NCBI GenBank assembly: GCA_020630395.1
Contig: JAHDBM010000049.1
Coordinates: 1 to 20,811, forward strand
DNA length: 20,811 bases
Direction: 5' to 3'
From: Flavobacteriales bacterium
GTDB taxonomy: Bacteria > Bacteroidota > Bacteroidia > Flavobacteriales_D > CAJJDF01
In this document: positions 3,434 to 20,662 of the stretch, in pieces
How positions within the stretch are numbered: the stretch's first letter is position 1
Layout: the number at the start of each line of letters is the position of its first letter
Translations under genes and position numbers: made by a program
Notes under the pieces: generated by a model
Told to the model about the DNA's origin: nothing
The model's database searches: none
The model's input: the letters and a program-made list of their open reading frames with translations, nothing else

Positions 3434-3443
3434 GTTTAGATTA

Positions 3444-3481: not shown

Positions 3482-3488
3482 CATGTGT

Positions 3489-6400: not shown

Positions 6401-9400
6401 AATTACCTTGCCCATCATATTTTTTTAAGAAAACAGAATTTGTATTACTTGTAGAAACAGAGGGAGGTATTACTTTAATTATTCTAGCTTTATGATCGTA
6501 TTGTGTATAAGCATCTAGATGATCGTTAACTGTTTGATAGGTGGTTCTTGCTAATACTGTTTTTCCTTCTACGTCATTAAACGTAATTGTTTTTTTTCCT
6601 TCAGGTGTTATTACTGTTGTTTTAAATAGTTTACCCTCTGGAAAGAACCCTCCATTATCTAAGTTTTTTACATTATCTGTGGATAAATTGTGTCCGTATG
6701 AATAATAAGTTGGTTCTCCTTGTGGAGGTGTTACCTCCATTAATCTACCTAATGGAGACAATTCATATACATATTGTGTATATTTTGCTATAGCTGGATC
6801 AGGGAATAATTGAAATTGTCCATTGTTTCCACCTTCAAATTCTTGATATTGGAAAATATCTTTACCTACTTCATCATAATGTGTTATGTTAACCAAATCT
6901 AGTCCATTTACCGAAGCATTTTCATCTACCGCAACAATAACTCTTCCAATACCATCAAAGTAATTTCGAGCAGCTTTGTCTGCTACAGGGTTTTCGGGAA
7001 TTTGTGTGTAACTCACATTTGTTCTTGTATAAGGGTAATCATCATTTTTTATATCGCCCATGTGGTAGCTGTGGGTTGTAATGATGTTACCTCTAGCCTC
7101 TGTTTTGGTGATTAGTCTTCCAAATTGATCATAAACAAAATCAATTTCTTCGCCACTAATAGAGGTTATTTTAGATACTAATCGGGTATTGGGATAATAA
7201 TCGCTATAAGATGTATTACCGTTAAAAGATGTACTAATTAATTTATGATCTTCGTAGGTCATAACTTGTTCTCCCCATCCTGGTTTTTTTGTTCTTAAAA
7301 TATTTCCGTCTCCATATTGAACTAAGGTATCAGTTGGTATCCAACTCCCTGTATAATCGTCTTCTACGTTTTGTGTTCCTAAAAATTTATAGCCAACATG
7401 TGGGTATAGTTTAGGCATAAATAGACTTTGTGTGTTCAACATATGGCGGTAATCAATAATACCGTATACATCTACTAATGGATGATAAGATGCAGTATTC
7501 ATCACGCCATTTTCATCAAAAAGTTCGAATTTTGTTTTTACACCACCAGTTTGTATTTTTTCTCCATTTACTCGTTTAAACACCTCTGTTTTTAAAGGTA
7601 TGTTTTGCAAGTTTAACGCCAGTAAAACTTCATCTGCCAAGGTACTATCATCTACTAAATCAAACGCATAAGAATATTCTTCTTCTCTTCTATTACCATT
7701 ACTGTTTGTTGTTACTTTAGCTTCTGGTGCAATGTGTGGGTTAATTGTATTGTAATAATAATCGGTTCTAACATCAACACCATCTTTTATCGACTCTATG
7801 GTTTGCAATTGATAGTAACCATCTTTAATGTAATATTCACTACACGATATGAGGTTTACTTTATGGGTTCCAAAACCTCCGTTATCTCTTCTAAATGATA
7901 CAATTTCTCCAATCTTGTACAGTTTTTCGGTTGAGTGTAAATTCCAATATGAATCGTAGGGAGTATAAGTTGTTTTGGCAACTTCATTATTAAAGGCATC
8001 TACCATAATTATTTCAGATACTTGGCCCGTAAATGGATTAAAAATTGGAGGTGTAAAAGGAAACTTATGTTCATTAGGAGTAACCCAATCTTGCATTTCT
8101 TGTTTAAACTTATAAATGGTTTTTCCATTTCTAGGAAGATGAACTTCCTTTACTTCTGTATAAGCAATAGGTGTCCCGTTATATCCGCTTAACGGCATAA
8201 AACTTTGATCACTAAAATATATTCTCTGAAAATATGCATCACGTGCCCATGTAGGTAAGTTTACTCCATCATCTCTATGGTGAAGGTTCCAGCTACTTGA
8301 ATTTGGGACTTCTCTTTGAGCGTAATCAAATTTATTAATATTCATGCTAAAAATAGGTTCAAATAATCTTTCACCACTAGACTCTGTAGAATTACCAACA
8401 GTATATTCAAATTCAGTTATTATATCATTATCAGTTTCTTCAATTCCATCTTCAACTGTTATCCTTTTTATTCTAAGTCCAGGCGCAAGCTTGTTAGGGT
8501 CAGGTACGATTGATGGTGTTTTTAGTTTTAAAGAACCTGGTCCACCTTCTATAGTAACTTTAAATTTATAATTAACATTAGCAGTTAATCCTTGTAATGG
8601 AGATGTACCATCTTCTTCTTTAATTGGGAATGTAATATTACCCGAGTAAGTTTCATGATTTTGGATATTAAAAGACCGAGTAAGTGCTAAATCGTTAGTA
8701 GCAGTTTCAAAAATTTCGATTGTCATGTTTGCTCGGCCATCAATAGTTGGGTCGTTACAACCTTCTATGGTAAAATCTTCTAAGTCGTATGGAGATCCTG
8801 TATTGTTGTGATTATTATCAATTGGATCGTTTCCTCCTACAGGTGTAAGATGCCCACCATTTCCACCATCATTTATAAAATGATTAATAGCTAGATTCAC
8901 GGTAAACGTGCTATTTCTTAGTTCTTCCATTGAAGAAAATGTATAAGTAGCTTCATCTTCTAATTCATTACAACAAGCTAATTCACCATATTCGCACCCT
9001 TCAAGTAAAAAGCGAGTATAGAAATTAGATAGTTCTAAAAAAGAATATCTATGCCCTTCCCAATCATAAGAAGTTGAGCCTCCTGTAGGATATTGAACTT
9101 TTGTTAATACTCCATATTTTGCTTTTTCTTCATTTGCAGATCTATTGGCACCACCCTTATGTTTGACGATTACTTGATTTGTAACTGGGTCAACAAGTCT
9201 TTCTGTTCTTGATGGGATATTATCTGATCGGTAATTGTTTAATGATGCTCCATTGTAATATCCCATTTCATCTGTAGCTTTTGATAACCTACTAGGAAAG
9301 TATGGCTCGTTATCATTAGATGAGTCGGGAAAATGATACGTTAATTCGTAGGGAGGCATTTGTATGCTTTGATCACAAGATACCTCTTGAATACTTTTTA

Positions 9401-10679
9401 GAAATAAATTTTTGTTTTCGGCAACATCAGTTGGGTTGTTCAATAAATTAATATCATCATCATGGGTATATTCGTATGCTAAAATATATTCTTTACAAAA
9501 TGAATTATTACCACTATTAGCTGATGCACCAATGTTTTTAGTAATAATTTTATTTAGTTCTCTAGGTATATCGTATGGTGTATAAGGTATAAAGTTTGAT
9601 GCATGGTTACCCCATCTATCTATGTCTTCACGAGCATTTTCATATTCAAATTCAATAATGTCAAGGTCACTTTCAATTTTTTGTAATCGAACTCCTTTAA
9701 TAAGGTTTACATCATAATTATGTCTAGCACCATAATCTTCTATACGATAAGAAAATCTTGTGCTACTTGTATTAGCAGCAACTGATCCATTTACCCCATA
9801 AATACTGGTAGGGCTTCTTTCTTTTACCCCATTAAGATTTCTTGAATCATCAGTTATTGATTCGTCAATTTCATAATTTTTGAATCGAAAAGTATTTCTT
9901 GCAGGCGTTTTTACTAAATAAGATTCTTGTTCATAATAAAAGTTTAGATTATAGTCTAAATTATAATCTTGCATAGCAAGCAAGTGCCAACTTGTAATGA
10001 TTGTGTCTTTTATTATTCTATTTCTATTTTTAACGGTATTTCCATTTTGGTCTATAGTATATTCATATTGTTCTGTTGAGCTTGTTTCAATTGCATATCT
10101 TCCTGCAAACCTTCCAAAAAAGTAGTTGGTTCCATCAACATCAATAAGAGTAAAGCCAATTATTTTTCCATTTTCTCTAAATCTACTTATTCTTATATCA
10201 CTTCTTGGAATACAGTGGGCGTGTCCATTCTTATCAAAATAAAATTTACCAGACAACCCGTTTACATTAAAGCTGTACATATCTGGCTCAAGATCTTTGT
10301 TAATATGGGTAGCTTCATGATCTGAGTCATCATCAAGATCAAATACTAAGTTATTTTGATATCCTGTTAGGCCTTCGTCATCTGGTTTATCTTGTACTTC
10401 TCGTGATATTACTCCTCCAGCTATAAGTGACCAACCTTTTCCAACCATTGATGCAGGAGTGTTAACAATTAAGTTTCCTTGGTGGTAAGATAAACCAACA
10501 GATGTAGCTAATGAGCCTTCTTTAACAGATCCAATTGGAATACTTATGTTTGGACTTCCTGTATATTGACTAACAGGACTATTACCATATGTTCCCAAGC
10601 TAGCTGCCGAAGGAGATGCTTGAGAAAGAAATTGATTAATAGTGATTATAAAACTTAAAATTAAAAGAGTAGACTTCAT
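3489..10679 (-). CDS. RHS/YD-repeat polymorphic toxin (2396 aa): N-terminal signal peptide, C-terminal variable toxin region after the DPxGL motif
   Basis: Signal peptide MKSTLLILSFIITINQFLSQA. Dozens of YD-type repeats (YVYDFAGNII, YSYDDQGNLERL, LYDLDGNITYD…). RHS core end …RYRTYDPSMARWYQVDP…NPAMYADPQGDLG at ~nt 4598-4633. Downstream of that come a Gly/Ala/Ser-rich hydrophobic segment and a ~230-aa domain I cannot assign. Confidence 0.9.
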   Translation of the reverse strand: MKSTLLILSFIITINQFLSQASPSAASLGTYGNSPVSQYTGSPNISIPIGSVKEGSLATSVGLSYHQGNLIVNTPASMVGKGWSLIAGGVISREVQDKPDDEGLTGYQNNLVFDLDDDSDHEATHINKDLEPDMYSFNVNGLSGKFYFDKNGHAHCIPRSDIRISRFRENGKIIGFTLIDVDGTNYFFGRFAGRYAIETSSTEQYEYTIDQNGNTVKNRNRIIKDTIITSWHLLAMQDYNLDYNLNFYYEQESYLVKTPARNTFRFKNYEIDESITDDSRNLNGVKERSPTSIYGVNGSVAANTSSTRFSYRIEDYGARHNYDVNLIKGVRLQKIESDLDIIEFEYENAREDIDRWGNHASNFIPYTPYDIPRELNKIITKNIGASANSGNNSFCKEYILAYEYTHDDDINLLNNPTDVAENKNLFLKSIQEVSCDQSIQMPPYELTYHFPDSSNDNEPYFPSRLSKATDEMGYYNGASLNNYRSDNIPSRTERLVDPVTNQVIVKHKGGANRSANEEKAKYGVLTKVQYPTGGSTSYDWEGHRYSFLELSNFYTRFLLEGCEYGELACCNELEDEATYTFSSMEELRNSTFTVNLAINHFINDGGNGGHLTPVGGNDPIDNNHNNTGSPYDLEDFTIEGCNDPTIDGRANMTIEIFETATNDLALTRSFNIQNHETYSGNITFPIKEEDGTSPLQGLTANVNYKFKVTIEGGPGSLKLKTPSIVPDPNKLAPGLRIKRITVEDGIEETDNDIITEFEYTVGNSTESSGERLFEPIFSMNINKFDYAQREVPNSSSWNLHHRDDGVNLPTWARDAYFQRIYFSDQSFMPLSGYNGTPIAYTEVKEVHLPRNGKTIYKFKQEMQDWVTPNEHKFPFTPPIFNPFTGQVSEIIMVDAFNNEVAKTTYTPYDSYWNLHSTEKLYKIGEIVSFRRDNGGFGTHKVNLISCSEYYIKDGYYQLQTIESIKDGVDVRTDYYYNTINPHIAPEAKVTTNSNGNRREEEYSYAFDLVDDSTLADEVLLALNLQNIPLKTEVFKRVNGEKIQTGGVKTKFELFDENGVMNTASYHPLVDVYGIIDYRHMLNTQSLFMPKLYPHVGYKFLGTQNVEDDYTGSWIPTDTLVQYGDGNILRTKKPGWGEQVMTYEDHKLISTSFNGNTSYSDYYPNTRLVSKITSISGEEIDFVYDQFGRLITKTEARGNIITTHSYHMGDIKNDDYPYTRTNVSYTQIPENPVADKAARNYFDGIGRVIVAVDENASVNGLDLVNITHYDEVGKDIFQYQEFEGGNNGQFQLFPDPAIAKYTQYVYELSPLGRLMEVTPPQGEPTYYSYGHNLSTDNVKNLDNGGFFPEGKLFKTTVITPEGKKTITFNDVEGKTVLARTTYQTVNDHLDAYTQYDHKARIIKVIPPSVSTSNTNSVFLKKYDGQGNLIELKSPDKGIVKFRYNSLNQLVAKQTSKLNSLNKWNVFEYDTKGRLIRSGDIDLNGEPNVENLLATNIWNETFYSNSGTSINKVVRQETAMFNGFQLTSNRLVTINDYDTYGRLLRVEKDNHLGGSKVTDNYVYDFAGNIISWRVTQRKTANANPVVIENETAYTPQGIATDAYQTINGHTEHLSHNTFNADGTISQSQNGVNNNGALQTIDYTYEKNHLVGINANPTADDIFSLSFIYETNNTSLTGVNTYRDGKLSAIRWKHRNESWKNYDYGYDYIGRLTEAIYSEGNGNQSVGLYDCSYSYDDQGNLERLIRYGVGYNNIVQGYNRVKVDDLYYMYENNYYNRLERIREYNYSPIYTHHSPGYESKNQYSWNGNEKYLYDLDGNITYDPSRQINILYNYFDLPYEIEKSDQTGKIQWLFDANGSRLQKTVTHNGSITEVTDYIGSFIYTNNDETINGGFYRVNNIHSTPRYDYYIQDHLGNTRAVYSDLNDNGSIEDNEILQATDYYPYGMQHFNIRTSLNNTNASNGHENNYLYNGIEYEFSFDLNLGFTRYRTYDPSMARWYQVDPKGYAVAAYSPYVSMNNNPAMYADPQGDLGIIAAIGIGAVISGIVQGISNHKQGGSFATGFIAGAIVGGVTSAATSGIGSAIGATGSAGKELLRAGAHGMVGGFGSIMQGGSFGSGFLTSVVSSGFGSLTDNASALEAYAAGAASGGITSVISGGNFFAGAGKGLVITALNHRSHNDPPCPDCPISAYQEDHAPEIVRGDDGVYYQMSTVTNVIIHKPAFNRWDYITQTMAWTGHSLNFFSGQLIKDGKWRSLVDGKWRRNKLNGSSWGKYGARGHTVILQNKVNKVANGLGKAGTAIGVLDDLNQYRQGRQSGFVTSIKVGVALISEGKHPYAKALGLGWDIAEAASHTEWYQNWKSSTLIPFAEKVGLRDKPLPPIVPTRPAPAGTPLGYIMTNNY

Positions 10680-10703
10680 TTTTTTCTTTTTATAAAATGT
10701 TTA

Positions 10704-11864
10704 TTAGTTGTTTTTGATAAATTTTGAAGTAATAATTTGTTGATTAACATTTACTTCAATGGTGTATATTCCTCCAGAAAGTGATTCAAGGTTTAAGAAT
10801 TTTGTTCTACCTTTTATTGATGTCTCTAGCTTAGTTTTTCCTTGTGCATCTATTACTTTTATAGAAAAATCTTCCATTAATTCTTCTGAAAGCGTAACAG
10901 TAATATTATCTATAGTTGGGTTTGGGGATACAGCAATATTTATATTAGGGTAATAATTCTCGTCATAAATATCTATTGGTTCTGCATCACAATCAATATT
11001 TTTATTTCTTAGTATTTTACTCTTTGTAATTAAGTTTGCGGCTAATATTCTTCTAATTTGGCCATGAGTAAAACTATATAAACACTTATCATTAGTGTTA
11101 TCCATGTAGTTAAAGTAAAGCTCTAGTTTTCCGTCTATTGTATTAACATGTCCGTCTGCAGGGCATTCGTCATTTGGGTCATTATGTAGAGGCGTGTCAT
11201 ATACTTTATCATCTTTTCCATTTTGATACCATAAATCATATAAACCCATAGAATTTCCTAGTAAGTGGATAAGTGTAGCACCTTCATTATAGCGTTTAAA
11301 CTTTGCTACCTCTTGCATACCAAAAAAACTTCTATTAATTGTTACATGAGTGTTTTCTATTTTCATCCATGGCATTAAAGACCAACCAGCAATTGTATCA
11401 TTAAGAGGTAGTATTGTAACAATTAGGAACTCATTAGGTTTCCAAAAAGCAGTGTCGAACCTTTGTAAAATGAATTTTGAGTATTCAATGCCTAATTTGT
11501 TGTTTTTTTTGGCTAAACAAAACGTTATGCTTGGCAATCCATCAATTTGAAAAGCTTCATTAACTTTATTTAATTGATCTAGTATATTGGTATGAGTTAA
11601 TTTGTTTTTTTCAGCTCCATAAACTTGATGAAATACAACTGGAATTGTTTGATCTTTTATTGCACCTCTAAAGATGTAGTTCTCAATTTTTTGCTCAATT
11701 TGATTTTTTGTTTTTTTTATTGAATCATTTTTTAATTGTTCAGATTCCTTTTTTTGCGTTTCATAATTTCTGGGAACAATAGCACTTTGAGCATAACCTA
11801 AAGTAGATTCTAACATTAGTAGAATATAGGTTAAACAACATAATATCATTTTTTTTGATTGCAT
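10704..11864 (-). CDS. T9SS-sorted M43 (cytophagalysin/pappalysin)-like protein with degenerate zinc-binding motif (probable pseudo-peptidase)
   Basis: Signal peptide. M43-type motifs VYDTP…C…NYMDNTNDKC…FTHGQIRRI. In place of HExxHxxGxxH it has HLLGNSMGLYD, which lacks the catalytic Glu and the second and third His. C-terminal T9SS CTD (IAVSPNPTIDNITVTL…GGIYTIEV). It sits 24 nt upstream of the RHS gene on the same strand. Confidence 0.6.
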   Translation of the reverse strand: MQSKKMILCCLTYILLMLESTLGYAQSAIVPRNYETQKKESEQLKNDSIKKTKNQIEQKIENYIFRGAIKDQTIPVVFHQVYGAEKNKLTHTNILDQLNKVNEAFQIDGLPSITFCLAKKNNKLGIEYSKFILQRFDTAFWKPNEFLIVTILPLNDTIAGWSLMPWMKIENTHVTINRSFFGMQEVAKFKRYNEGATLIHLLGNSMGLYDLWYQNGKDDKVYDTPLHNDPNDECPADGHVNTIDGKLELYFNYMDNTNDKCLYSFTHGQIRRILAANLITKSKILRNKNIDCDAEPIDIYDENYYPNINIAVSPNPTIDNITVTLSEELMEDFSIKVIDAQGKTKLETSIKGRTKFLNLESLSGGIYTIEVNVNQQIITSKFIKNN

Positions 11865-12028
11865 GGTTAGGTTTTTTGATCTAATTTATTTGCAAAGGTA
11901 TAAAATTAGTTCTCACAACCTATGCTTATAACAAAAAAGTTTTGTTTTTAACAATTTGTTATTTTTAAATCTTATTTTTTTAATAAGATCCTAAATGGGA
12001 ATATTAGAATAATTTTTATAACTAAAAG

Positions 12029-12099
12029 GGTGTCTTCGGGGATCGACCCCTGTTCTCTTGCTTCACAGGTAAGCACTTTACCGAATAAGCTAAAGACAC
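12029..12099 (-). tRNA. tRNA-His(GTG)-like, atypical (6-nt T-loop, no encoded G-1)
   Basis: Minus-strand read: GTGTCTT-TA-GCTT-ATTCGGTA-AAGT-G-CTTAC-CUGUGAA-GCAAG-AGAA-CAGGG-GTCGAT-CCCCG-AAGACAC-C. Perfect 7-bp acceptor stem, U33 and A37 present, anticodon GTG, discriminator C73 (the His identity element). The T-loop is one nt short. Confidence 0.5.
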
Positions 12100-12108
12100 T
12101 ATAAAAAA

Positions 12109-12179
12109 TTGCCCCGACAGGGATCGAACCTGTAGTACAAGGCTCAAAATCTTGGGTGTTGCCGTTACACTACGGGGCA
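12109..12179 (-). tRNA. tRNA-Gln(TTG)
   Basis: Minus-strand read: TGCCCCG-TA-GTGT-AACGGCA-ACAC-C-CAAGA-UUUUGAG-CCTTG-TACT-ACAGG-TTCGATC-CCTGT-CGGGGCA-A. Perfect acceptor stem with U1-A72 (typical of Gln). D-arm and T-arm are canonical. Anticodon UUG. One A31·C39 mismatch. Confidence 0.75.
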
Positions 12180-12438
12180 TTTTAAATTCCTATCCAGATT
12201 CGAATTGGGACTGTAGAGTTTAAGTCTACTATCTCTGCCAATTGGATTAGAGGGACATTGTTGTAATCAGAGCGGGTTAAACAGCTAGCTTTTTATTAGC
12301 TTAAAAGATTTATCTGCTTATTTAGGAATTTCACAAGTTACATTGAGTAGAATTCGGGCTGAAATCTAATTTTTTAACATATGTAAAATTTATTGTGACT
12401 TTTTAGTCTTTCATTTGTAGTAGCTAAACTTATACAAT

Positions 12439-12849
12439 ATGAAATCACTTAATAAGAAACAAATTGGATGCTATGCTATGTTTATATTAATGATACTTTC
12501 CGCATCTTTTAAAATTCTACGTTATGGGCCATCTGTACATTTTTATGTTTATCCTTTACCAGATATAATGTTAAACTCTGTTGGATATATAGAGCTTATT
12601 TGTGGAATTTTATATCTCATTGGAGTTAAAAAAGTATCATTTAGAGTTTATGGAGGCATAATTGTAATACCTCTATTGATTGGAGCTGTTGGCTCTCATA
12701 TTGCGTTTGGATGGTTCAATTTGTTTGATGGAATAAGTGAACCTTTTCACTTTACTTTACCATCATTTATTATTTTATGTCTTGCCATTTGGATTTCACA
12801 TAAACCTATTGTAAAATTTGTGAAGTCAGGCTTTAAAATGGTTGAATAG
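12439..12849 (+). CDS. Small polytopic membrane protein, DoxX-like
   Basis: 136-aa ORF with 4 predicted hydrophobic helices. The …GYIELICGILYLIG… segment resembles DoxX-family proteins. Confidence 0.45.
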   Translation: MKSLNKKQIGCYAMFILMILSASFKILRYGPSVHFYVYPLPDIMLNSVGYIELICGILYLIGVKKVSFRVYGGIIVIPLLIGAVGSHIAFGWFNLFDGISEPFHFTLPSFIILCLAIWISHKPIVKFVKSGFKMVE

Positions 12850-12897
12850 AAAGGAGAACCCTTTTGGTTTGTATGGCTTTTTATTAAATAAAAAAAG

Positions 12898-12972
12898 TAC
12901 AGAAGGAGAGACTCGAACTCTCAAAAACCTGATTCTAAGACAGGCGCGTATGCCAAATTCCGTCACTTCTGC
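12898..12972 (-). tRNA. tRNA-Leu(TAG)-like with Leu-type D-arm and A73 but only a 5-nt variable loop (atypical)
   Basis: Minus-strand read: GCAGAAG-TG-ACGGAATTTGGCATACGC-G-CCTGT-CUUAGAA-TCAGG-TTTTT-GAGAG-TTCGAGT-CTCTC-CTTCTGT-A. 75 nt. The D-arm closely resembles bacterial tRNA-Leu (…CGGAATTGGTAGACGCGC). Anticodon UAG. The long variable arm expected for Leu is absent. Confidence 0.5.
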
Positions 12973-13027
12973 ATGTGTTAAGATGCTGTTCTTTATTTAC
13001 TATTACATTTGTTCAGTCCATATTAAT

Positions 13028-13050
13028 TGAATGCTTAGCATTCCGAATCC
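13028..13050. repeat. Hairpin-containing ~23-nt motif, copy 1 (TGAATGCTTAGCATTCCGAATCC)
   Basis: GAATGC-TTA-GCATTC perfect 6-bp hairpin followed by CGAATCC. 20 of 23 positions match the copy at 13731-13752. Confidence 0.4.
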
Positions 13051-13107
13051 TTATCTTCCGATAGAAAGTCGGATGCAGGATCCATTATGCTAATGGAGCC
13101 TTTTTTG

Positions 13108-13179
13108 TATGGGAAACAGGATTCGAACCTGCAACCTCCCGCGTCCAAGGCGGGTAAACAGCCTTCGTTATCTTCCCAT
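13108..13179 (-). tRNA. tRNA-Pro(TGG), copy 1
   Basis: Minus-strand read: ATGGGAA-GA-TAAC-GAAGGCT-GTTT-A-CCCGC-CUUGGAC-GCGGG-AGGTT-GCAGG-TTCGAAT-CCTGT-TTCCCAT-A. Perfect acceptor and anticodon stems, anticodon UGG, discriminator A73. Position 8 is G, which is unusual. Confidence 0.75.
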
Positions 13180-13204
13180 ATATAAATACTCACAGTATTT
13201 TTTG

Positions 13205-13276
13205 TAGAAATAGCAAGAATCGAACTCTCACCTTTGGGTTCGTAACCCAATATTCTATCCGTTAAACTATATTTCT
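13205..13276 (-). tRNA. tRNA-Arg(ACG)
   Basis: Minus-strand read: AGAAATA-TA-GTTT-AACGGATA-GAAT-A-TTGGG-UUACGAA-CCCAA-AGGT-GAGAG-TTCGATT-CTTGC-TATTTCT-A. Perfect acceptor and anticodon stems, anticodon ACG. One T-stem mismatch. Confidence 0.75.
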
Positions 13277-13364
13277 ATTTTGTCTGAGAAGCAGGATTGA
13301 CATAGTCTTTCCTGCAATTGCTCAGCCCGAACCAAATTTAAGTAAACTTGTTTTGGTTTCTTCG

Positions 13365-13436
13365 TCTGAGAAGTAGGATTCGAACCTGCGACCTCTCGCG
13401 TCCAAGGCGAGTAAACAACCTCCGTTATCTTCTCAG
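13365..13436 (-). tRNA. tRNA-Pro(TGG), copy 2 (paralog of copy 1)
   Basis: Minus-strand read: CTGAGAA-GA-TAAC-GGAGGTT-GTTT-A-CTCGC-CUUGGAC-GCGAG-AGGTC-GCAGG-TTCGAAT-CCTAC-TTCTCAG-A. Same architecture as copy 1 with a different acceptor stem (G72 here). Anticodon UGG, A73. Confidence 0.75.
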
Positions 13437-13526
13437 TTGAGTAGTGCCGATCCAGTAGATAGGACAATTAAATTAAGAGACAGTTAATCTAAATCAATAG
13501 GATATTATTGCGGCACTTGTAAAAAG

Positions 13527-13597
13527 TAGGAATAGCAAGAATCGAACATGCAGCTTTGGAGCTCTCCCCCAATGTTTTGCCATTAAACTATATTCCC
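13527..13597 (-). pseudogene. tRNA-like paralog of tRNA-Arg(ACG) with non-canonical anticodon loop GGAGAGC (no U33)
   Basis: Minus-strand read: GGGAATA-TA-GTTT-AATGGCA-AAAC-A-TTGGG-GGAGAGC-TCCAA-AGCT-GCATG-TTCGATT-CTTGC-TATTCCT-A. It aligns position by position with the Arg tRNA at 13205-13276. The anticodon loop lacks U33; a nominal anticodon would be AGA. Confidence 0.45.
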
Positions 13598-13730
13598 ATG
13601 TAATATGTTCCAACATTTTTTCTGTCAGTTCGAGTGATTTTTGCGAACAGCTAAAATTATATCGAGAACAAAAAAACAAGTGGAAGCAGTAGGATTAGTT
13701 CACTAATGTGTATATTTTAATTGTGTTCAC

Positions 13731-13752
13731 TGAATGCTTCGCATTTCGAACC
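13731..13752. repeat. Hairpin-containing motif, copy 2 (TGAATGCTTCGCATTTCGAACC)
   Basis: Near-identical to 13028-13050. Both copies sit in spacers of the tRNA array. Confidence 0.4.
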
Positions 13753-13874
13753 TACAGGTTCCGAAGAAACCAGATTTTACTTCATTAACGTGTTTATATT
13801 TAAAGGTATTCAGTGAATTCGCCAGCTCATTTCAGTCTGGCTAGCCAACCAATTGCTCAATACTTCCATAAAAG

Positions 13875-13947
13875 AGACAAGAGTGAGATTCGAACTTACA
13901 CAAAACAGGTTTGCAGTCTGTTGCCTTAGCCGTTCAGCCATCTTGTC
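13875..13947 (-). tRNA. tRNA-Cys(GCA)
   Basis: Minus-strand read: GACAAGA-TG-GCTG-AACGGCTA-AGGC-A-ACAGA-CUGCAAA-CCTGT-TTTGT-GTAAG-TTCGAAT-CTCAC-TCTTGTC-U. Perfect acceptor stem. U33 and A37 present. Anticodon GCA, discriminator U73 (the Cys identity element). Confidence 0.75.
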
Positions 13948-13953
13948 TTTATG

Positions 13954-14040
13954 CGGAAAGAGTGGGAGTCGAACCCACACGAGTCATTATCTCCGAACAG
14001 TTTTCAAAACTGTGGCCACCACCAATTGGCTTGCCTTTCC
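13954..14040 (-). tRNA. tRNA-Ser(TGA), type II with long variable arm
   Basis: Minus-strand read: GGAAAGG-CAA-GCC-AATTGGTGGT-GGC-C-ACAGT-UUUGAAA-ACTGT-(TCGGAGATAATGACTCGT)-GTGGG-TTCGACT-CCCAC-TCTTTCC-G. Ser-type D-arm with GG. Anticodon UGA, G73. One extra nt between acceptor and D-stem (or an 8-bp acceptor). Confidence 0.7.
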
Positions 14041-14078: not shown

Positions 14079-14110
14079 AAAAAAAGCGTCTCGGTAAGGA
14101 GACGCTTTAT
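14079..14110 (-). terminator. Intrinsic terminator (strong in minus orientation) upstream of the tRNA array
   Basis: AGCGTCTC-ggtaag-GAGACGCT 8-bp stem (14085-14106). In minus-strand sense it is followed by TTTTTTT. It would block read-through into the tRNA array from higher coordinates. Confidence 0.5.
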
Positions 14111-14519
14111 AATTATTGATAGATATCAATAGATCATAAAAGGCAATTCTCCTGGTTATATATTTTCTGCGAAGAGGGATAACATAATCGTAATGCTTCT
14201 AGCTGAAGACTCGGGAGTATATACCCAAGTGTTTCTATAATTTGTTTGTTATTTAATTTAAAATGTTTCATGTGTATAATGCTATACATATTTATTGTTT
14301 TCGCTCTGCAAATATCAAAATCATTTTTTTAAAAAACAAATAAAAAATCAATTTATTTTATTGATAATCAAATATTTAAGCTAAAATATAGACGGTTTTC
14401 TCCCTGTCCACCTATTGGTAGATATTACATGTTTTTACAATCGACTGTCTCTCAATTATTTCTTGTTTCAAATGCTATTTTTTAGTTTCTTATTTCATCA
14501 GTTGTTTTTAGTAAAAAAA

Positions 14520-14560
14520 AATCAAAAAAAAAGCGTCCAATATATTGGACGCTTCGCTTT
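14520..14560. terminator. Perfect 22-nt palindrome hairpin flanked by A-run and T-rich tract (terminator-like in both directions)
   Basis: AGCGTCCAATA|TATTGGACGCT (14532-14553). Preceded by AAAAAAAAATCAAAAAAAAA, followed by TCGCTTTTAGTTT. Confidence 0.45.
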
Positions 14561-16390: not shown

Positions 16391-16437
16391 GCAGAAGGAA
16401 CTATTTATTGTTTCTTCTGCTTTTTTTGTTTCTGTTT
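16391..16437. terminator. Terminator hairpin, usable in both directions, between convergent transcription units
   Basis: GCAGAAG-(17 nt)-CTTCTGC followed by TTTTTTT on plus, and by a T-rich tract in minus sense. It overlaps the last codons (KQ-rich tail) of the minus-strand TPR ORF. Confidence 0.5.
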
Positions 16438-16896
16438 TACTCGTTTGTTTACTTCATTTAAGTAATTCATATAATCACTATTATACGTTTCAGTTTTAGC
16501 CAACTTAATAGTTTTTATGGCCTTTTTATACTGATGTTTATATTCATATAGCAGAGCTTTTTTTGCATAGATTACTCCTTTATCAATTCCTTTAATCGTT
16601 AATGTGTAATCAATTAACTTAAACGCTTCTTTATATTTTTCTAAAGATATTAGAGAAGAGATATAGTAAGGGTAAATTTGTAAGCAATACATGTCGGCTG
16701 CTAATGCATCCTCATAATAATCAATAGCTGTTATATAGTCCTTAAGTTGTTCGGCAAATACACGTCCTTTTAATAAAAGAGCATGTGCTTGATCATCTCC
16801 ATACGATAAAGCATAATCCAATGCTTCCATTGTTTGTGGCAAATCGTAGGGGTAATGATCTATTGCCTCTAATAAATATTTTGTTGCAAGCGTCAT
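16405..16896 (-). CDS. TPR-like repeat protein with Lys/Gln-rich C-terminal tail; last gene of the RtcB-PrfH cassette
   Basis: 163 aa. Helical repeat pattern with Tyr/Ala/Leu periodicity (…ALLLKGRVFAEQLKDYITAIDYYEDALAAD…). Its start overlaps the prfH stop (ATGA). Confidence 0.5.
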   Translation of the reverse strand: MTLATKYLLEAIDHYPYDLPQTMEALDYALSYGDDQAHALLLKGRVFAEQLKDYITAIDYYEDALAADMYCLQIYPYYISSLISLEKYKEAFKLIDYTLTIKGIDKGVIYAKKALLYEYKHQYKKAIKTIKLAKTETYNSDYMNYLNEVNKRVKQKQKKQKKQ

Positions 16897-17555
16897 GTTA
16901 ATTTAAATTTTTCTCCTTTAAAAACTAAGGAAGCATTCCCTCGTTCTAATTGAAGATGATTATTCCATTTTTGTTCAATTGTTTCTTCTTTTTGTTTCCT
17001 GTTTTTGGCCTCAATTTTTTCTTGCAAACGTGCAATAGCAAGTTTTTTATTCTGCAATTGAGATCTACTGTCACTCGAAACAGCCATTATCCCAGTTGGT
17101 TTATGAATAACTCGAATAGCCGAACTTACTTTATTGGCATGTTGGCCTCCAGGTCCAGAACTTCTCATTGCTTGAAACAATAAGTCTTTCGATTTTAGAG
17201 ACAATGCAGTTTCTGTATTTATCTGATTGCAACCAATAAACCAGTTTTTTCGTTTATGATTTTTTCTAAAAGGAGAGTTTCCAATCCATTGTATTGAACC
17301 TAACCAAGGTTGTATAAATGTTGCTACTTGTTCACCTTTTATTTCAATAGTTATTGACTGAAAGCAATTGTCGTATTTACCTCTAATCATTTCTTTTATC
17401 GCCACCTTTATATTACTGTTTTGGCATTTTTTTTCGAAATAATTAAAAGCTTTATATACGAACCATTCACATTCTGATGGCCCCCTACCTGCTGTAAATT
17501 GTATAGTTTTTGTGTTCATTTTAATTCGGTTTTTCTGATAATAGTTTGTTTCCAA
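16893..17555 (-). CDS. prfH: Peptide chain release factor H (PrfH / RF-H), GGQ-containing
   Basis: …MRSSGPGGQHANKVSSAIRVIHKPTGI… is the class-I release factor GGQ peptidyl-hydrolase motif. The ~205-220 aa size is typical of PrfH. It is paired with rtcB as in described rtcB2-prfH loci. An alternative start MNTKT at 17519 would sit 1 nt after the upstream stop. Confidence 0.8.
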   Translation of the reverse strand: METNYYQKNRIKMNTKTIQFTAGRGPSECEWFVYKAFNYFEKKCQNSNIKVAIKEMIRGKYDNCFQSITIEIKGEQVATFIQPWLGSIQWIGNSPFRKNHKRKNWFIGCNQINTETALSLKSKDLLFQAMRSSGPGGQHANKVSSAIRVIHKPTGIMAVSSDSRSQLQNKKLAIARLQEKIEAKNRKQKEETIEQKWNNHLQLERGNASLVFKGEKFKLT

Positions 17556-18066
17556 TTATTTCTTTGTTTAGTGCTAATAATGCAATAGCTGCTTGAACTG
17601 CCCAGCACTTATCACTAGAATGTATATTCGAATAAAAACTTAGTAGTTTATCTGGTCGCACTATTTGCCAATCATCAATTAATATAAATGGTAGATTAGC
17701 TGATTCAAAAAAATCAATTGTTATTCTTGTTTCTCTATCATCATCCAGACTAACTATTTTTTCATATCGTCTAAAATTTTCATTGCTAGGTCTATTGTAA
17801 TATCGCGTCCATACTTTTTTGAAGTTTTCTGCAAGTAAAATTGTCATTACTTGTGGAACATTTCTTGGATTCACAAACAAATCAATATCCTTGTGGTCAT
17901 GTGCATGTTTATATTCTGTATGATTTTTAGGAGACATAAAGTGCCAAGCCCAACCGCCAGAAATAATTACCAATGGTTTTATTTTTTCTAAAATTTCTAA
18001 GCCTTGATTAATTCTATAATCCGGCCATTTTTCTCCATATCTTTTTTTGTTATGTGGTGCTCCCAT
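17521..18066 (-). CDS. Nucleotidyltransferase-fold protein (minimal NTase-like), unknown specificity
   Basis: 181 aa. VIISGGWAWHFMS…(13 aa)…HKDIDLFV fits the hG[GS]…[DE]h[DE]h pattern of the Pol-beta-like NTase superfamily. It lies between rtcB and prfH on the same strand. Confidence 0.45.
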   Translation of the reverse strand: MGAPHNKKRYGEKWPDYRINQGLEILEKIKPLVIISGGWAWHFMSPKNHTEYKHAHDHKDIDLFVNPRNVPQVMTILLAENFKKVWTRYYNRPSNENFRRYEKIVSLDDDRETRITIDFFESANLPFILIDDWQIVRPDKLLSFYSNIHSSDKCWAVQAAIALLALNKEIIGNKLLSEKPN

Positions 18067-18115: not shown

Positions 18116-19507
18116 TTAATAATTCATTCGGACAATTTTTGGTTTAAAACTGCCCACTACTTCAACCAATTCTTCTTGGTTTTTCATTACACGATTAATG
18201 TTTTTATATGCCATAGGCGCTTCATCAATTCCTCCACCAATAAGTTCTACTTCGTGCAACTTCAATTGCTTTTTAATTTCACTTTTGGTAAAATGTTCAT
18301 GACATTCACTTCTGGAATAAGCTCTTCCTGCTCCATGAGATGCAGAATTTAAACTCCCCTCATTTCCTAGCCCTCTTACAATAAAACCAGGAGCTGTCAT
18401 AGAACCCGGAATAATTCCCAGTTCACCTTTGGCTGCTGGAGTAGCACCTTTTCTATGAACAATACATTCTTTACCATTTATTATTTCTTTCCATGCAAAA
18501 TTGTGATGGCTTTCTATAGTAGCAAGCGTTTTTGTTCCTAGTAGCTTTTCCATTCGTTTATGAATATTATCATGACATGCTTTCGCATAATCACCAGCTA
18601 AGTTCATGGCTAACCAGTATTCTTGTCCGTCATGTGTATTTAAATCAAGCCAAGCTAAATGCTGCACTTGCTTTGGTAACGGACATTGTTTGGTAGCCAA
18701 GTAGGTGTATTGTTTTGCAATATTTGCTCCCAACCCACGTGAACCACTGTGCGATAATAACCCAACATAATCTCCAACAGGTAAATCCCACTCTTTGTTA
18801 GGATCCGTAATGGAAACCGTTCCAAACTCCACAAAGTGATTTCCTCCTCCAGAAGTTCCAAGCTGTTTATACGCCTTTATTTTAAGTCTTCTTAATAAAG
18901 GAATATCTTGAAATTCTGTTCTCGAAAATATTTCATGATCATGTTTTACCTTATGCGTTTCGTACATTCCAAATTTGGTATGCTCCGCTAGGTGGTTTTT
19001 AAACTGATCCTTTTTTCCTTTTAAGTACGAAACCGGAATAGGAAAAATAGAAAGCGCCATTCTACATCCAATATCAACTCCAACTCCGTAAGGAATTACA
19101 GCATTATCGGTTGCAAGAACTCCTCCAATTGGCAATCCATAACCATGATGCGCATCTGGCATTAAAGCACCTTGCACAGCAACAGGAAGTTTTAAAGAAT
19201 CGAACAGTTGGTACTTTGCTGCATCAGCAATTTCATCTTCTCCGTAAATTTTAAAAGGCACACGAGTTGATTTTAATTGGTGCTTTTTTATTTCTACAGG
19301 ATCTTTTAATGCCTCAGCAACTTTTCCCCAAATGTGATTTCCTTCATACTTTTCAGGATTAAGAAATACATCTTTTGCTTCGTTTAAAATCTTCTCTTTG
19401 CTTTCTTTTTTTCGGTATCTACTTATTTGACCTAGTGTTATATTAATCGTATTGTCTTGCGGGAATCCTAATTTTATTAGGTCTTTCCCTTTTAGTTTCT
19501 TTCCCAT
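18116..19507 (-). CDS. rtcB: RtcB-family RNA 3'-phosphate ligase
   Basis: RtcB signature blocks: GVDIGCRM, HHGYGLPIGGV, HSGSRGLGANI, GGNHFVEFG, IVHRKGATPA, ASHGAGR. 463 aa, with an N-terminal extension relative to a ~408-aa RtcB. Confidence 0.9.
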   Translation of the reverse strand: MGKKLKGKDLIKLGFPQDNTINITLGQISRYRKKESKEKILNEAKDVFLNPEKYEGNHIWGKVAEALKDPVEIKKHQLKSTRVPFKIYGEDEIADAAKYQLFDSLKLPVAVQGALMPDAHHGYGLPIGGVLATDNAVIPYGVGVDIGCRMALSIFPIPVSYLKGKKDQFKNHLAEHTKFGMYETHKVKHDHEIFSRTEFQDIPLLRRLKIKAYKQLGTSGGGNHFVEFGTVSITDPNKEWDLPVGDYVGLLSHSGSRGLGANIAKQYTYLATKQCPLPKQVQHLAWLDLNTHDGQEYWLAMNLAGDYAKACHDNIHKRMEKLLGTKTLATIESHHNFAWKEIINGKECIVHRKGATPAAKGELGIIPGSMTAPGFIVRGLGNEGSLNSASHGAGRAYSRSECHEHFTKSEIKKQLKLHEVELIGGGIDEAPMAYKNINRVMKNQEELVEVVGSFKPKIVRMNY

Positions 19508-20175
19508 AATGTATCTATTATACTTCTTGACGAAGTGTTTTTAAAACGAGCTAATTGTTGATTAGATAGATGTCTATCTTTTCTTTTTTTTAGCAATTCG
19601 TTTATGTATTTGTATCCATACTCCAAGCCTATGTTTGCTTCGTAATACCCTTTCTTTTCTAGTTTATGCCATAACAAAGACTCTTCACTAATAAGACAAG
19701 GATCTATTACTTTAACATGCGTGTTGTAAGCTCTTGTATATTTTATTTTGTAGGCGTTTTTTGGTATTTTGATATAATATCTAGTTCTCCACTTTTTATG
19801 TTCCCGATAGTTAAATGATGTACATAGTTTTTGCGCTTTTTTAGAGAGCTTTCCATATTGTTTTTTACTGATGGTTGGAAAATTTAGGTAGATCATTGCC
19901 TTAGATGTTTGATTATCCCAATGCTTTTCACATTCCTTTTTGTTTCTTCCCCAATAGAGTTTCTCTATCTTTTCGAAAACCTCTAATATGTATTGCTCAT
20001 TTTTATATCGTTCTACATTGGTTGTAATAACTATTTCTTTATACCAACCATGTCGAATAGGTTGTGCTAGTTTTTTATATCCTAGTGCTTTTTGTTCATC
20101 CCAATTTGCACGTATGTCTTTCCAAACTTGCCGAACCTCTTTTCGCCTGCGTTCTTTTATATGAACTGGTTTCAT
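19492..20175 (-). CDS. Highly basic Lys/Arg/Tyr-rich hypothetical protein; first gene of the RtcB-PrfH cassette
   Basis: 227 aa. No recognisable catalytic motif: no P-loop, no HGT/Tpt1 motif, no SAM-binding motif. Its stop overlaps the rtcB start by 16 nt, suggesting translational coupling. Confidence 0.5.
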   Translation of the reverse strand: MKPVHIKERRRKEVRQVWKDIRANWDEQKALGYKKLAQPIRHGWYKEIVITTNVERYKNEQYILEVFEKIEKLYWGRNKKECEKHWDNQTSKAMIYLNFPTISKKQYGKLSKKAQKLCTSFNYREHKKWRTRYYIKIPKNAYKIKYTRAYNTHVKVIDPCLISEESLLWHKLEKKGYYEANIGLEYGYKYINELLKKRKDRHLSNQQLARFKNTSSRSIIDTLWERN

Positions 20176-20205: not shown

Positions 20206-20371
20206 TTAATTTTTAATTTGTTTTCGATCGAATCCAGTAAACGCTCCTGCTAAACTGAACTCTTAGATTTTAATAGCGTATTTCATTGTTATTGATTTTT
20301 GCTCTTGCAATAGCAAGAAAAATTATACGTAGTTGATTAATTGTTTCCAGACTTGGAAAATGAGAGTCATA

Positions 20372-20403
20372 AAAAAAGTCCGAAACGTTAGCTTCGGACT
20401 TTT
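20372..20403 (-). terminator. Rho-independent terminator for the upstream minus-strand gene
   Basis: AGTCCGAA-acgttagc-TTCGGACT 8-bp stem (20377-20400). In minus sense it is followed by TTTTTTT. It insulates the cassette at 16405-20175 from the gene ending at 20663. Confidence 0.6.
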
Positions 20404-20662
20404 CAATTATGCGATTTTGAAGTTTTGTTAACTCATGCAAAAAGATATCCAAAGCATGTTCTTTCCAAACCCTGGGTTTGCAAGAACGGTTGTATGTAAA
20501 TTAAGATTTAACATGTTATACTTTAGTTTAAAAATTTATATTCTTTTTGTTTTCGTTACACAAAGGTAAGGTGAAAAATTTCTTATTTCCAAACACTTAA
20601 CGCAGATATTTTTTTTAGGGTTGCCAATTACTACGTAGTAGTAAGATTTTTTTAAAATGCAA

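Follow-up and report, generated by a model that had tools for sequence, protein, structure and literature searches.

The tRNA Array

The minus strand of a 20,811-nt stretch of DNA from a Flavobacteriales bacterium (assembly GCA_020630395.1, contig JAHDBM010000049.1, positions 1 to 20,811; hereafter the window) carries an array of tRNA genes at 12028–14040, situated between an RNA-repair operon and a gene for a Band-7/SPFH protein. A first-pass annotation of this region had listed nine co-oriented tRNA or tRNA-like genes and proposed a check with ARAGORN. That program found eight tRNA genes, and nine genes, matching the list, reach the gathering score of the Rfam tRNA model (RF00005, 29 bits), with 30.0–57.9 bits and E-values from 2e-10 to 0.01. 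All tRNA genes of the array are encoded on the minus strand and none on the plus strand. A tenth unit, resembling tRNA-Leu(UAA) (12185–12256), scores 23.1 bits and so falls under the gathering score. The order of transcription is Ser(UGA), Cys(GCA), an Arg(ACG) paralog, Pro(UGG), Arg(ACG), Pro(UGG), Leu(UAG), Leu(UAA)-like, Gln(UUG), and His(GUG). In total, the array comprises 12 units: the nine above the Rfam threshold, listed below, and three degenerate tRNA-derived units in the gaps.

13953–14040, minus strand: tRNA-Ser(UGA), class II, G73, first gene of the array (ARAGORN; Rfam tRNA 38.8 bits)
13874–13947, minus strand: tRNA-Cys(GCA), U73, acceptor stem GACAAGA (ARAGORN; Rfam 52.2 bits)
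13526–13597, minus strand: Arg(ACG) paralog, tRNA-like (ARAGORN; Rfam 49.2 bits)
13364–13436, minus strand: tRNA-Pro(UGG), G8, non-canonical D-arm of the family type (ARAGORN; Rfam 30.0 bits)
13204–13276, minus strand: tRNA-Arg(ACG), 36% G+C, acceptor stem AGAAATA (ARAGORN; Rfam 57.9 bits)
13107–13179, minus strand: second tRNA-Pro(UGG) of the same odd type, with G8 and the odd D-arm (ARAGORN; Rfam 34.1 bits)
12898–12972, minus strand: tRNA-Leu(UAG), class I (without a long variable arm), A73, 75 nt (Rfam 48.4 bits)
12109–12179, minus strand: tRNA-Gln(UUG), U1-A72 (ARAGORN; Rfam 52.4 bits)
12028–12099, minus strand: tRNA-His(GUG), C73 (ARAGORN; Rfam 45.8 bits)

The genes are spaced 5–280 nt apart, except across an open reading frame (ORF) at 12439–12849, and are close enough for co-transcription. 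Many of the features singled out in the first-pass annotation are evident in the sequence, including the identity elements (U1-A72 in Gln, U73 in Cys, G73 in Ser, C73 in His, and A73 in Leu), the AT-rich acceptor stems of genes whose G+C content ranges from 36 to 54%, and two paralog pairs, one formed by the odd Pro(UGG) genes and the other by Arg(ACG) and the Arg-like gene at 13526–13597. The same is true of G8 in both Pro tRNAs, where it accompanies the odd D-arm, of the class-I Leu gene, and of the missing encoded G-1 of His, where base -1 is A. The annotation had listed these features as unusual; most of the structural oddities are conserved traits of a family of arrays found in other genomes (see below) and not particular to this copy. 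In that family, class-I Leu and G8 Pro are the norm.

The window tRNAs are 81–97% identical to their nearest array relatives elsewhere, and most deviate little at columns conserved within the family. Ser(UGA) deviates at none of 38 conserved columns and is 91% identical to its copy in locus L098 (related loci are given L numbers throughout); the tRNA-Sec model also matches this gene, with 45.8 bits against a gathering score of 47. Cys has homologs in L002 and L023 that differ by compensatory changes in the stems. A single deviation was counted in Arg(ACG) (1/31) and in Gln (1/28), and Leu(UAG), 87% identical to its L098 copy, deviates at 3/39. The first-transcribed Pro (13364–13436) deviates at 0/39 and is 97% identical to a copy in L163, and the second (13107–13179) deviates at 3/39, a statistic that for Pro is partly circular since the pattern used to find many of the family members was the Pro gene itself. 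His deviates at 2/44 columns, including a change of U54, the base of the array family, to G. The Arg paralog stands apart: its anticodon loop reads GGAGAGC, without U33, ARAGORN labels it Ser(aga), and its four deviations among 31 conserved columns all fall within that loop. Judged by its sequence, it is a tRNA-like gene and would not be a normal decoder.

Degenerate Units and Erosion of the Array

The first-pass annotation had left the gaps between the nine genes empty apart from one small membrane-protein gene. An ORF of that kind does lie there, though on the opposite strand and without supported homology, and the gaps also hold the remains of further tRNA genes.

12185–12256, minus strand: degenerate tRNA resembling Leu(UAA) (ARAGORN at relaxed threshold only)
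13681–13867, minus strand: Tyr-derived tRNA gene, twice interrupted (exons align with Tyr(GUA) of L012, L023, L029, and L169)
~12985–13100, minus strand: remnant derived from Glu(UUC) (by comparison with Glu of L003–L005)
12439–12849, plus strand: putative gene, a 136-aa hydrophobic ORF that splits the array (ORF prediction)

The Leu(UAA)-like unit deviates at 5/41 conserved columns. The Tyr-derived gene has a 54-nt insert at position 37/38 (~13776–13829) and a 50-nt insert in the T-loop at 58/59 (13696–13745); its anticodon loop is CUGAAA, its T-stem pairs at 5/5 positions across the insert, and the two inserts are mutually complementary over ~10 nt. As encoded, this gene is probably no decoding tRNA. 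The Glu-derived remnant keeps the 5' strand of the acceptor stem, the anticodon arm (UCCGA CUUUCUA UCGGA), and the T-loop insert motif TTCGGAATGCTAAGCATTCA (13028–13047, minus strand), and it is regarded as a pseudogene because the 3' exon is missing. For the 136-aa ORF the best family match, to DoxX, was weak (E = 0.16) and no significant family match was obtained; tblastn found no homolog in the related loci, and no PHROG matched.

The best-supported account of these features is that the window holds an eroded, rearranged, and depleted copy of a marine variant of the array, in which by sequence ~7–8 of the 12 units look usable and ~4 are degenerate. With ~4 units degenerate, "largely functional" was too generous a description of the whole.

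The RNA-repair Operon and Band-7

The window is Bacteroidota-like chromosomal DNA, with three proteins bearing sorting tails of the type IX secretion system (T9SS) and a 2396-aa RHS protein. RtcB and PrfH are encoded in an operon that is co-oriented with the array and lies 2.9 kb upstream of it, and a Band-7/SPFH gene marks the other end of the conserved module.

19492–20175, minus strand: p227, a conserved basic protein, first gene of the RtcB operon
18116–19507, minus strand: RtcB RNA ligase (PF01139, E = 3.2e-82)
17521–18066, minus strand: 181-aa protein, candidate PrfH-associated nucleotidyltransferase (weak NTP_transf_5 match, E = 0.049)
16893–17555, minus strand: PrfH, peptide chain release factor H (TIGR03072, 224.9 bits against a cut-off of 166.65, E = 6.5e-67)
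16405–16896, minus strand: TPR protein (Pfam TPR matches; kept in 14 loci)
2249–11864, no strand assigned: inserted block with a T9SS-tailed FGase-like protein, the 2396-aa RHS protein, and a further T9SS-tailed protein
131–1234, minus strand: Band-7/SPFH protein, end of the conserved module (PF01145, E = 1.2e-25)

The window RtcB is 73–80% identical to PrfH-adjacent RtcB proteins of Flavobacteriales metagenome-assembled genomes and shares its operon with PrfH; the model of the PrfH-linked RtcB subfamily, TIGR03073, gives it 151.3 bits against a cut-off of 271.8. The 181-aa protein, of which L013 has a homolog with 58% identity, is possibly a PrfH-associated nucleotidyltransferase. A TPR gene and a nucleotidyltransferase associated with this release factor are known accessories of PrfH-RtcB operons (PMC6514570). 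The p227 family is limited to Flavobacteriia, where it is always the first gene of the RtcB-PrfH operon; it is strongly basic, with R41, G43, W44, E47, C118, T152, and other residues invariant and H42 and H153 nearly so. An AlphaFold2 model of p227 was confident, yet no fold match was found for it.

Band-7 directly follows a cluster of tRNA-like RNAs in the window, and the main array lies 10.8 kb away owing to the inserted block. As judged by tblastn, this 9.6-kb block is missing from the position between array and Band-7 in all related loci. It looks like an insertion that tore the array from Band-7, because relatives keep the array followed by Band-7. The RHS-repeat protein within the block (3489–10679, minus strand) ends in ~245 aa that follow the RHS core and a Gly/Ser-rich stretch; this C-terminal part has no Pfam match and may be a new toxin tip.

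The first-pass annotation had suggested looking for prophage or integrative and conjugative element borders. No phage, integrase, or integrative and conjugative element gene was found among the scanned ORFs of the window, and the three ORFs scanned against PHROGs gave no match; the array is instead part of a chromosomal RNA-repair island. That it is part of a prophage was considered and rejected, and the label "prophage" is unjustified, because no phage or integrase family matches the scanned window proteins. The suggestion that such arrays replenish tRNAs lost to anticodon nucleases fares better: an anti-RNase role fits the context, since RtcB and PrfH lie 2.9 kb upstream.

Related Loci

A search of 185,579 species genomes (GTDB) with the window PrfH yielded 80 loci. 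Co-oriented tRNAs adjoin the PrfH operon in eight of them, all from the closest relatives (Flavobacteriales, Crocinitomicaceae, and Fluviicola), and in one Acetatifactor locus; ~65 other PrfH loci have no adjoining co-oriented tRNAs. The Acetatifactor locus (L081, 3117–3986), the sole one outside Bacteroidota, has tRNAs for Lys, His, Tyr, and Ser and a 92-nt unit to which ARAGORN assigns the anticodon UUA at relaxed threshold. The PrfH-adjacent array of L025 includes a tRNA-Ile with a UAU anticodon (18896–18969); such tRNAs are rare in bacteria and typical of phage arrays.

With the window proteins as tblastn queries, the order p227-RtcB-PrfH-TPR, tRNAs, Band-7 was found to be conserved in L004, L011, L012, and L029, and Band-7 homologs (43–53% identity) stand directly after the arrays in these four loci and in ~24 metagenome loci. 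The tRNAs of different loci are homologous, as seen in alignments of Ser(UGA), Cys, Gln, Leu(UAG), and the odd Pro, whose stems differ by compensatory changes. A second search, with the D-arm and anticodon arm of the odd Pro as a pattern, recovered 84 loci from metagenomes, often on contigs of 100 kb to 1.6 Mb, and three contigs from a viral collection. Nearly all are co-oriented arrays, with up to 16 tRNAs, and among the metagenome loci Band-7 lies downstream in ~24 and RtcB is present in 11. One of them, L131, has the full set, with p227-RtcB-PrfH-TPR followed by 16 tRNAs.

Gene order within the arrays recurs: His, Arg, Lys, Arg, Ser, Asp, Pro, Glu, Met, Asn, Cys, Tyr, Glu, Leu, Phe, Gln, Trp or, in the marine variant, Ser, Ser, Cys, Tyr, Asp, Pro, Glu, Lys, Leu, Leu, Arg, Gln, His, Phe, Arg. 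The genes have a mean G+C content of 42–56%, and most are canonical, with intact anticodon loops and discriminator bases and 50–74 bits in the Rfam tRNA model. Leu genes are short throughout (49 of 52 Leu(UAG) genes are 72–76 nt, without a long variable arm, and every Leu(UAA) is 75–77 nt). Relatives have between 0 and 16 tRNAs at the syntenic site: the complete genome of Polaribacter cellanae has a single tRNA-Tyr and a YrlA-like RNA between TPR and Band-7, and L011 a single tRNA (Phe). The distribution of the array is thus sporadic or the result of horizontal transfer. That it is an accessory array follows from the variation between 1 and 16 tRNAs at the syntenic site of relatives that have any.

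Several further observations concern individual subfamilies. In a soil subfamily, the arrays (L096, 616–6391 and 9458–11067; L111, 836–7774) have a ternary conflict system of the MoxR-vWA-beta-propeller type (bpMoxR, bpX2, bpX0/bpX1) immediately upstream, and genes for an RNaseH-like protein, an RNase T-type exonuclease, and DinB follow before Band-7. Of 41 array copies of the tRNA-Cys(GCA) gene, 32 have a length of 83 nt (L082, L083, L086, and other members of the soil subfamily), with a 12-nt variable region and an extended D-arm, a form unusual among Cys tRNAs. In L002 (7530–7621) and L012 (11753–11860), a complete tRNA is followed after 60–100 nt by a duplicate of its own 3' end, comprising the T-stem and acceptor 3' strands; these resemble att-site remnants or products of recombination in the T-loop.

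Relationship to Phage tRNAs

Two of the three viral contigs, L166 and L168, are real phages, encoding a terminase that matches phrog_6681 (E = 5e-99), a portal protein that matches phrog_6547 (E = 1e-140), and a virion protein. In these phages the odd Pro tRNA occurs within the series Pro-His-Ser or Pro-Gln-His-Leu-Leu, beside structural genes. Among 50,697 phage records, the window Leu(UAG) is 81–87% identical to tRNA-Leu of Vibrio phages and of Cronobacter phages S13 and LPCS28, and the 78-nt tRNA-Leu(tag) of LPCS28 lies within an array of matching isoacceptor repertoire. Blastn of the whole array against the same records returned only Leu(UAG) and one weak Ser match, and the array as a unit is absent from sequenced phages. 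On this sequence evidence, calling the array phage-type is justified. The original description of it as typical of phages or mobile elements therefore stands in part: the tRNAs are phage-type and accessory, but a mobile-element island is not supported, no such genes having turned up among the scanned ORFs of the window.

These comparisons bear on two simpler explanations. One is that the genes form a housekeeping tRNA operon of the ordinary kind in a Flavobacteriales genome of low GC content, as co-oriented chromosomal genes with no mobile-element genes nearby might suggest. We consider it very improbable, given that a G+C content of 36–54% and Rfam scores of 30–58 bits are low for bacterial tRNAs, that class-I Leu, G8 Pro, and His without G-1 are non-canonical forms, that relatives have anywhere from 1 to 16 tRNAs at the syntenic site, that the same tRNAs occur in phages, and that the window itself contains duplicated Pro genes and pseudogenes.

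The other is that the array is decaying phage or mobile-element cargo which came to lie by the repair operon because regions rich in tRNA genes are hot spots of integration and recombination, and which has no function in this organism. The state of the window copy lends this some weight: ~4 of 12 units are degenerate, an opposite-strand ORF splits the array, the RHS/T9SS block of 9.6 kb parts it from Band-7, and the tRNAs, at 30–58 bits, score lower than family members. Duplicated tRNA 3' ends in related arrays and the existence of phage relatives would fit as well. Position, order, leader ORF, and terminator are nevertheless kept across many divergent lineages, and the window Ser, Pro, and Leu genes are 87–97% identical to distant array copies, with 0–3 conserved columns deviating; nor do the scanned ORFs of the 20.8-kb window include a phage or integrase gene. 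Decay of functionless cargo accordingly seems rather unlikely.

tRNA Mimics Upstream of Band-7

A second set of tRNA-like elements belongs to the module.

1540–2140, minus strand: cluster of conserved tRNA-like non-coding RNAs upstream of Band-7 (Rfam tRNA 33.1 and 30.9 bits at 1546–1612 and 1618–1681)
1653–1719, minus strand: YrlA-like tRNA mimic (YrlA, RF02553, 32.3 bits, E = 7e-5)

A non-coding region of ~330 nt before Band-7 is conserved in 19 aligned loci. The YrlA match is confined to model positions 23–85 and lies below the gathering score of 69 for that family; it presents, in order, a T-arm, an acceptor stem closed by a loop, and a D-arm. The closed acceptor hairpin exists in at least 13 different self-complementary sequences, with perfect pairing in every locus, which is strong sequence evidence for covariation. 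Thus the element at 1653–1719 resembles the tRNA-mimic core of YrlA, though it is not a scored member of that family, and by the same evidence the module holds true tRNA mimics besides its tRNAs. A permuted tRNA gene at ~1600–1640 was set aside in favor of the YrlA-type closed hairpin, and an 85-aa ORF ("p85", 1695–1952, plus strand) was rejected, as its homologs carry stop codons and it represents the reverse strand of the conserved non-coding RNA. The cluster also includes a tRNA-like RNA of ~205 nt (1926–2133, minus strand), reported by ARAGORN as an intron-containing tRNA, with an acceptor stem (ACCTCTT/AAGGGGT), D-arm, T-arm, and encoded CCA; ~130 nt of conserved sequence takes the place of its anticodon arm, and homologs occur in L112, L146, and L091.

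The presence of bona fide mimics (a YrlA-like core with a closed acceptor hairpin) within the same module raises the possibility that the array RNAs act outside translation and, by analogy with Ro and its Y RNAs, serve the Band-7 scaffold and RtcB as cofactors, sensors, or decoys in the shape of a tRNA. Such RNAs might anchor the repair enzymes on broken tRNAs or sequester tRNase toxins. This coincides with the published prediction of Burroughs and Aravind (2016), as reported in bioRxiv 10.1101/312249, and a "sponge" has been proposed in PMC8421152. Lineages with one tRNA at the site, Tyr in Polaribacter and Phe in L011, would be in keeping with it, as would the non-decoding units, namely the Arg-like gene with its aberrant loop and those interrupted at 37/38 and 58/59. 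Set against these are the canonical form of most family members, with intact anticodon loops and discriminators and 50–74 bits, and the make-up of the arrays, which like decoding sets hold a near-complete, non-redundant set of anticodons in conserved order. Phages, moreover, have the same tRNAs among structural genes, with no Band-7 gene in the stretches fetched. A role outside translation is therefore viewed as unlikely, although it retains some plausibility.

Leader ORFs and Terminators

The regions preceding the array and the repair operon have a similar organization, as seen in the following elements.

14083–14108, minus strand: intrinsic terminator, candidate attenuator (terminator scan; hairpin of -12.5 kcal/mol)
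14134–14289, minus strand: 51-aa leader ORF (MYSIIHMKHF...), its stop codon 27 nt before the terminator
14439–14454, minus strand: conserved hairpin AATTGA-GAGACAG-TCGATT upstream of the array promoter (one mismatch; also in L002, L012, and the soil subfamily)
14530–14555, minus strand: terminator closing the upstream transcription unit (terminator scan; the same hairpin follows PrfH in L002)
20371–20514, minus strand: second leader ORF (28 aa, 20428–20514) and terminator hairpin with a T run (20371–20403), upstream of p227-RtcB-PrfH

In nearly every array the first tRNA begins 9–50 nt past an intrinsic terminator of the form RGCRYCTCC, loop, GGAGRYGC, and T run; in the window this distance is 43 nt. 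Arrays of the soil subfamily must be reached by read-through, because a 9-nt gap has no room for a promoter. Ahead of the hairpin lies an ORF of 30–55 aa; in at least 14 of 17 distinct subfamilies, 22–31 nt separate its stop codon from the hairpin. The encoded peptides have an N-terminal (L/I)-H-x-I motif in common and draw on nearly the full set of amino acids, and in the best-sampled subfamily (29 distinct sequences) the ORF has been kept through in-frame indels.

When the nascent RNA was folded without the 3' arm of the terminator, the 5' arm paired with a GGGAGA-type motif in the end of the ORF at 12 of 12 representative loci. The 3' end of the 51-aa leader ORF in the window holds such a predicted anti-terminator (AGGAGA..GC), with which the 5' arm of the terminator pairs upstream at 8/8 positions, a result reached by none of 200 shuffles. 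Besides this ORF and the terminator, the window has a promoter-like GATATTTGC. We predict from these features that the leader ORF plus terminator before the arrays constitutes a new translation-sensing attenuator. The hairpin at 14439–14454, found in marine and soil subfamilies, combines an invariant loop (GAGACAG) with a covarying stem.

The second leader unit has a hairpin (AGTCCGAAGC..GTTTCGGACT) of -14.4 kcal/mol that recurs in L002, L006, L013, and L131; the simple terminator scan gave no call for 20371–20403, its support being RNAfold and conservation. Matching leader units before the array and the RtcB operon suggest co-regulation, and we infer that both would open when ribosomes fail to finish the leader.

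A Model for the Array

On balance, the array is probably the spare tRNA component of a conserved Flavobacteriia RNA-damage island (RtcB/PrfH/Band-7) that would be gated by translation stress, and the window would hold an eroded copy of it. Its function and regulation we infer from synteny, conservation, and predicted structure. The ancestral order is proposed to have been a leader ORF and terminator, p227-RtcB-(nucleotidyltransferase-like)-PrfH-TPR, a second leader ORF and terminator, co-oriented phage-type tRNAs, YrlA-like mimics, and Band-7/SPFH. In cells with healthy translation, ribosomes would traverse the leader ORF and cover the anti-terminator at its 3' end, the terminator would form, and the array would be silent. 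If ribosomes stalled, the anti-terminator could pair with the 5' arm of the terminator and transcription would enter the array. Stalling might result from cuts made in tRNAs or ribosomes by RNase toxins, such as anticodon nucleases and colicin-E3-like rRNases, or from other translational stress. The induced array would supply spare tRNAs, mostly for amino acids with two-codon boxes together with Pro, Arg, Leu, and Ser, while in parallel PrfH would release stalled ribosomes and RtcB would reseal broken RNA.

Several observations weigh against this model. Selection on the leader peptide is weak, with 38% of single-nucleotide codon differences synonymous, as would be expected if the act of translation counted for more than its product; no run of regulatory codons is present in the leader peptides. 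The anti-terminator is often no better in single loci than in shuffled sequences, 0–70% of which match the observed pairing. The 43-nt gap between terminator and first tRNA makes a separate promoter possible in the window. The link to RtcB and PrfH is not universal, as arrays of the soil subfamily have neither within ~7 kb, and the array is linked more strongly to Band-7 than to RtcB/PrfH. Finally, several units of the window are degenerate, His lacks G-1 and has G54, and both Pro genes score only 30–34 bits.

If the model is correct, the array represents a silent reserve of phage-type tRNAs wired to the PrfH/RtcB stress signal, that signal being stalled translation of a leader peptide. It would give a concrete, testable function to Band-7-associated tRNAs, which have so far been predicted only, and the leader ORF with its terminator would offer a simple genetic handle on how attack on translation by tRNases and rRNases is sensed.

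Inserts in Array tRNAs

The two inserts of the Tyr-derived gene have counterparts throughout the family. Inserts of ~50 nt at T-loop position 58/59 are present in 31 genes (27 distinct sequences) of array loci, many of them sites in L082–L165, and affect Met, Asp, Pro, Arg, Gln, Ile, Cys, and Leu genes besides the Tyr- and Glu-derived units of the window. In an alignment of 19 cases, pairing of the T-stem amounts to 98.9% and 4/5 of its pairs show compensatory changes; pairing of the first hairpin of the insert is complete (100%), and one of its pairs varies between GC, AU, and CG. The covariation score of 0.340 compares with 0.148 in shuffles, of which 0/500 reach the observed value. Exons of interrupted genes are 96–100% identical to uninterrupted orthologs, at least as conserved as neighboring tRNAs in a comparison that carries a best-hit bias. 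A second type of insert occurs at 37/38 in class-II tRNAs, namely Ser(UGA) and Tyr-like genes, including that of the window. The insert type is common to at least 10 tRNA species, and the ends of the inserts are conserved.

Rfam scans of the array (E up to 5) and of 12 related loci (gathering thresholds) gave no family match for the inserts. They do not belong to a known RNA family, because the scans returned only tRNA-clan matches and chance-level ones far below gathering scores; identities as ribozymes or group I introns were likewise rejected for want of Rfam support. Inspection of the insert junctions revealed no bulge-helix-bulge, and no endonuclease family matched the scanned window proteins. 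ARAGORN in intron mode mostly fused adjacent tRNAs into artifacts. No report of T-loop inserts in bacterial tRNA genes was found in the literature searched.

Candidate explanations for the inserts are that they are spliced introns, that they are functional expansions, or that spare genes tolerate them as selfish mini-elements. It is conceivable, if quite unlikely, that they are intervening sequences removed from the RNA, with RtcB rejoining the halves, which would amount to protein-dependent tRNA splicing in bacteria or to a "pro-tRNA" usable only when repair is active. Intact exons, conserved insert ends, one covarying hairpin, and occurrence in at least 10 tRNA species make the sequences compatible with splicing. 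In protein-spliced tRNA introns of the bulge-helix-bulge type, as here, the insert lies at 37/38 or in another loop and the exons are intact; unlike them, the inserts show no bulge-helix-bulge motif, and no EndA-type endonuclease matched among the scanned window proteins. Interrupted tRNAs beside RtcB raise the question of cut-and-ligate tRNA splicing in bacteria.

Comparison With Known Systems

The window belongs to known kinds of system, with features that we did not find described in the literature searched, the 2016 prediction being represented there by a citing paper. According to that paper (bioRxiv 10.1101/312249), Burroughs and Aravind (2016) noted RtcB beside Band-7 and a predicted, strongly tRNA-like "band 7-associated tRNA" in some bacteria; YrlA occasionally adjoins Band-7, and the system is described there as a prediction without experimental validation. 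Judging by its sequence, the window module matches this predicted RNA-repair system, whose role in repair is itself predicted: RtcB, Band-7, and tRNA or tRNA-like genes share one neighborhood, and a YrlA-type mimic stands by Band-7. It differs from the system as summarized in the citing paper in having arrays of up to 16 tRNAs in place of one tRNA-like gene, a link to PrfH, TPR, and p227, leader ORFs with terminators, and recurrent inserts.

PrfH and RtcB in one operon, with Flavobacteriia as main host, are shared with the RtcB2-PrfH module (PMC9304027; PMC9223846; PMC12829566). As outlined in two of these sources, PrfH-RtcB2 has been characterized experimentally as releasing and repairing ribosomes cut by colicin E3 (PMC9304027; PMC9223846). 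Adjacent tRNA genes, Band-7, and leader ORFs are unmentioned in PMC12829566 and PMC1586002, both of which deal with PrfH, and no report of tRNA genes beside PrfH was found in the literature searched.

With phage arrays (T4- or T5-like, such as that of Cronobacter phage LPCS28) the array family shares a repertoire of Lys, Glu, Tyr, Asp, Pro-UGG, Asn, Leu-UAG, Arg-ACG, Phe, Gln, Trp, and Cys, class-I Leu(UAG) genes that are 81–87% identical, and AT-rich stems. It differs in lying on a bacterial chromosome, within a repair island and behind a predicted terminator gate. The leader unit of the array resembles the trp, his, and phe leader attenuators in combining a short ORF, an intrinsic terminator, and a predicted alternative pairing that overlaps the end of the ORF; it has no run of codons for a single amino acid, and its predicted targets are tRNA genes. 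The array leader would sense a general failure of translation, because the peptide uses nearly all amino acids. Leader-peptide attenuation is not a mechanism for which Bacteroidota are known.

A tRNA array unit has been defined by at least 20 tRNA genes at a density of at least two per kb (Tran et al., 2016; PMC4758250); the 9–12 units of the window occupy 2 kb, and relatives have no more than 16, which is below the size specified. A further parallel is the L-array of Anabaena, which is silent, induced by translational stress, co-regulated with rtcB, and an aid to survival (Santamaria-Gomez et al., 2021; PMC8421152). Both are co-oriented arrays of extra tRNAs, putatively so in the Flavobacteriales case, with a sporadic distribution, rtcB nearby or co-regulated, and some non-canonical members. 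The array described here differs in being from Bacteroidota, shorter (9–12 units, with a maximum of 16 in relatives), and tied to Band-7 and tRNA mimics. The L-array is induced by impaired translation through promoter repeats and the TrcR repressor, whereas induction of the Flavobacteriales array is a predicted counterpart that would operate by transcription attenuation. If so, the concept of a stress-induced accessory tRNA array extends from cyanobacteria to Bacteroidota, with a different mechanism of control.

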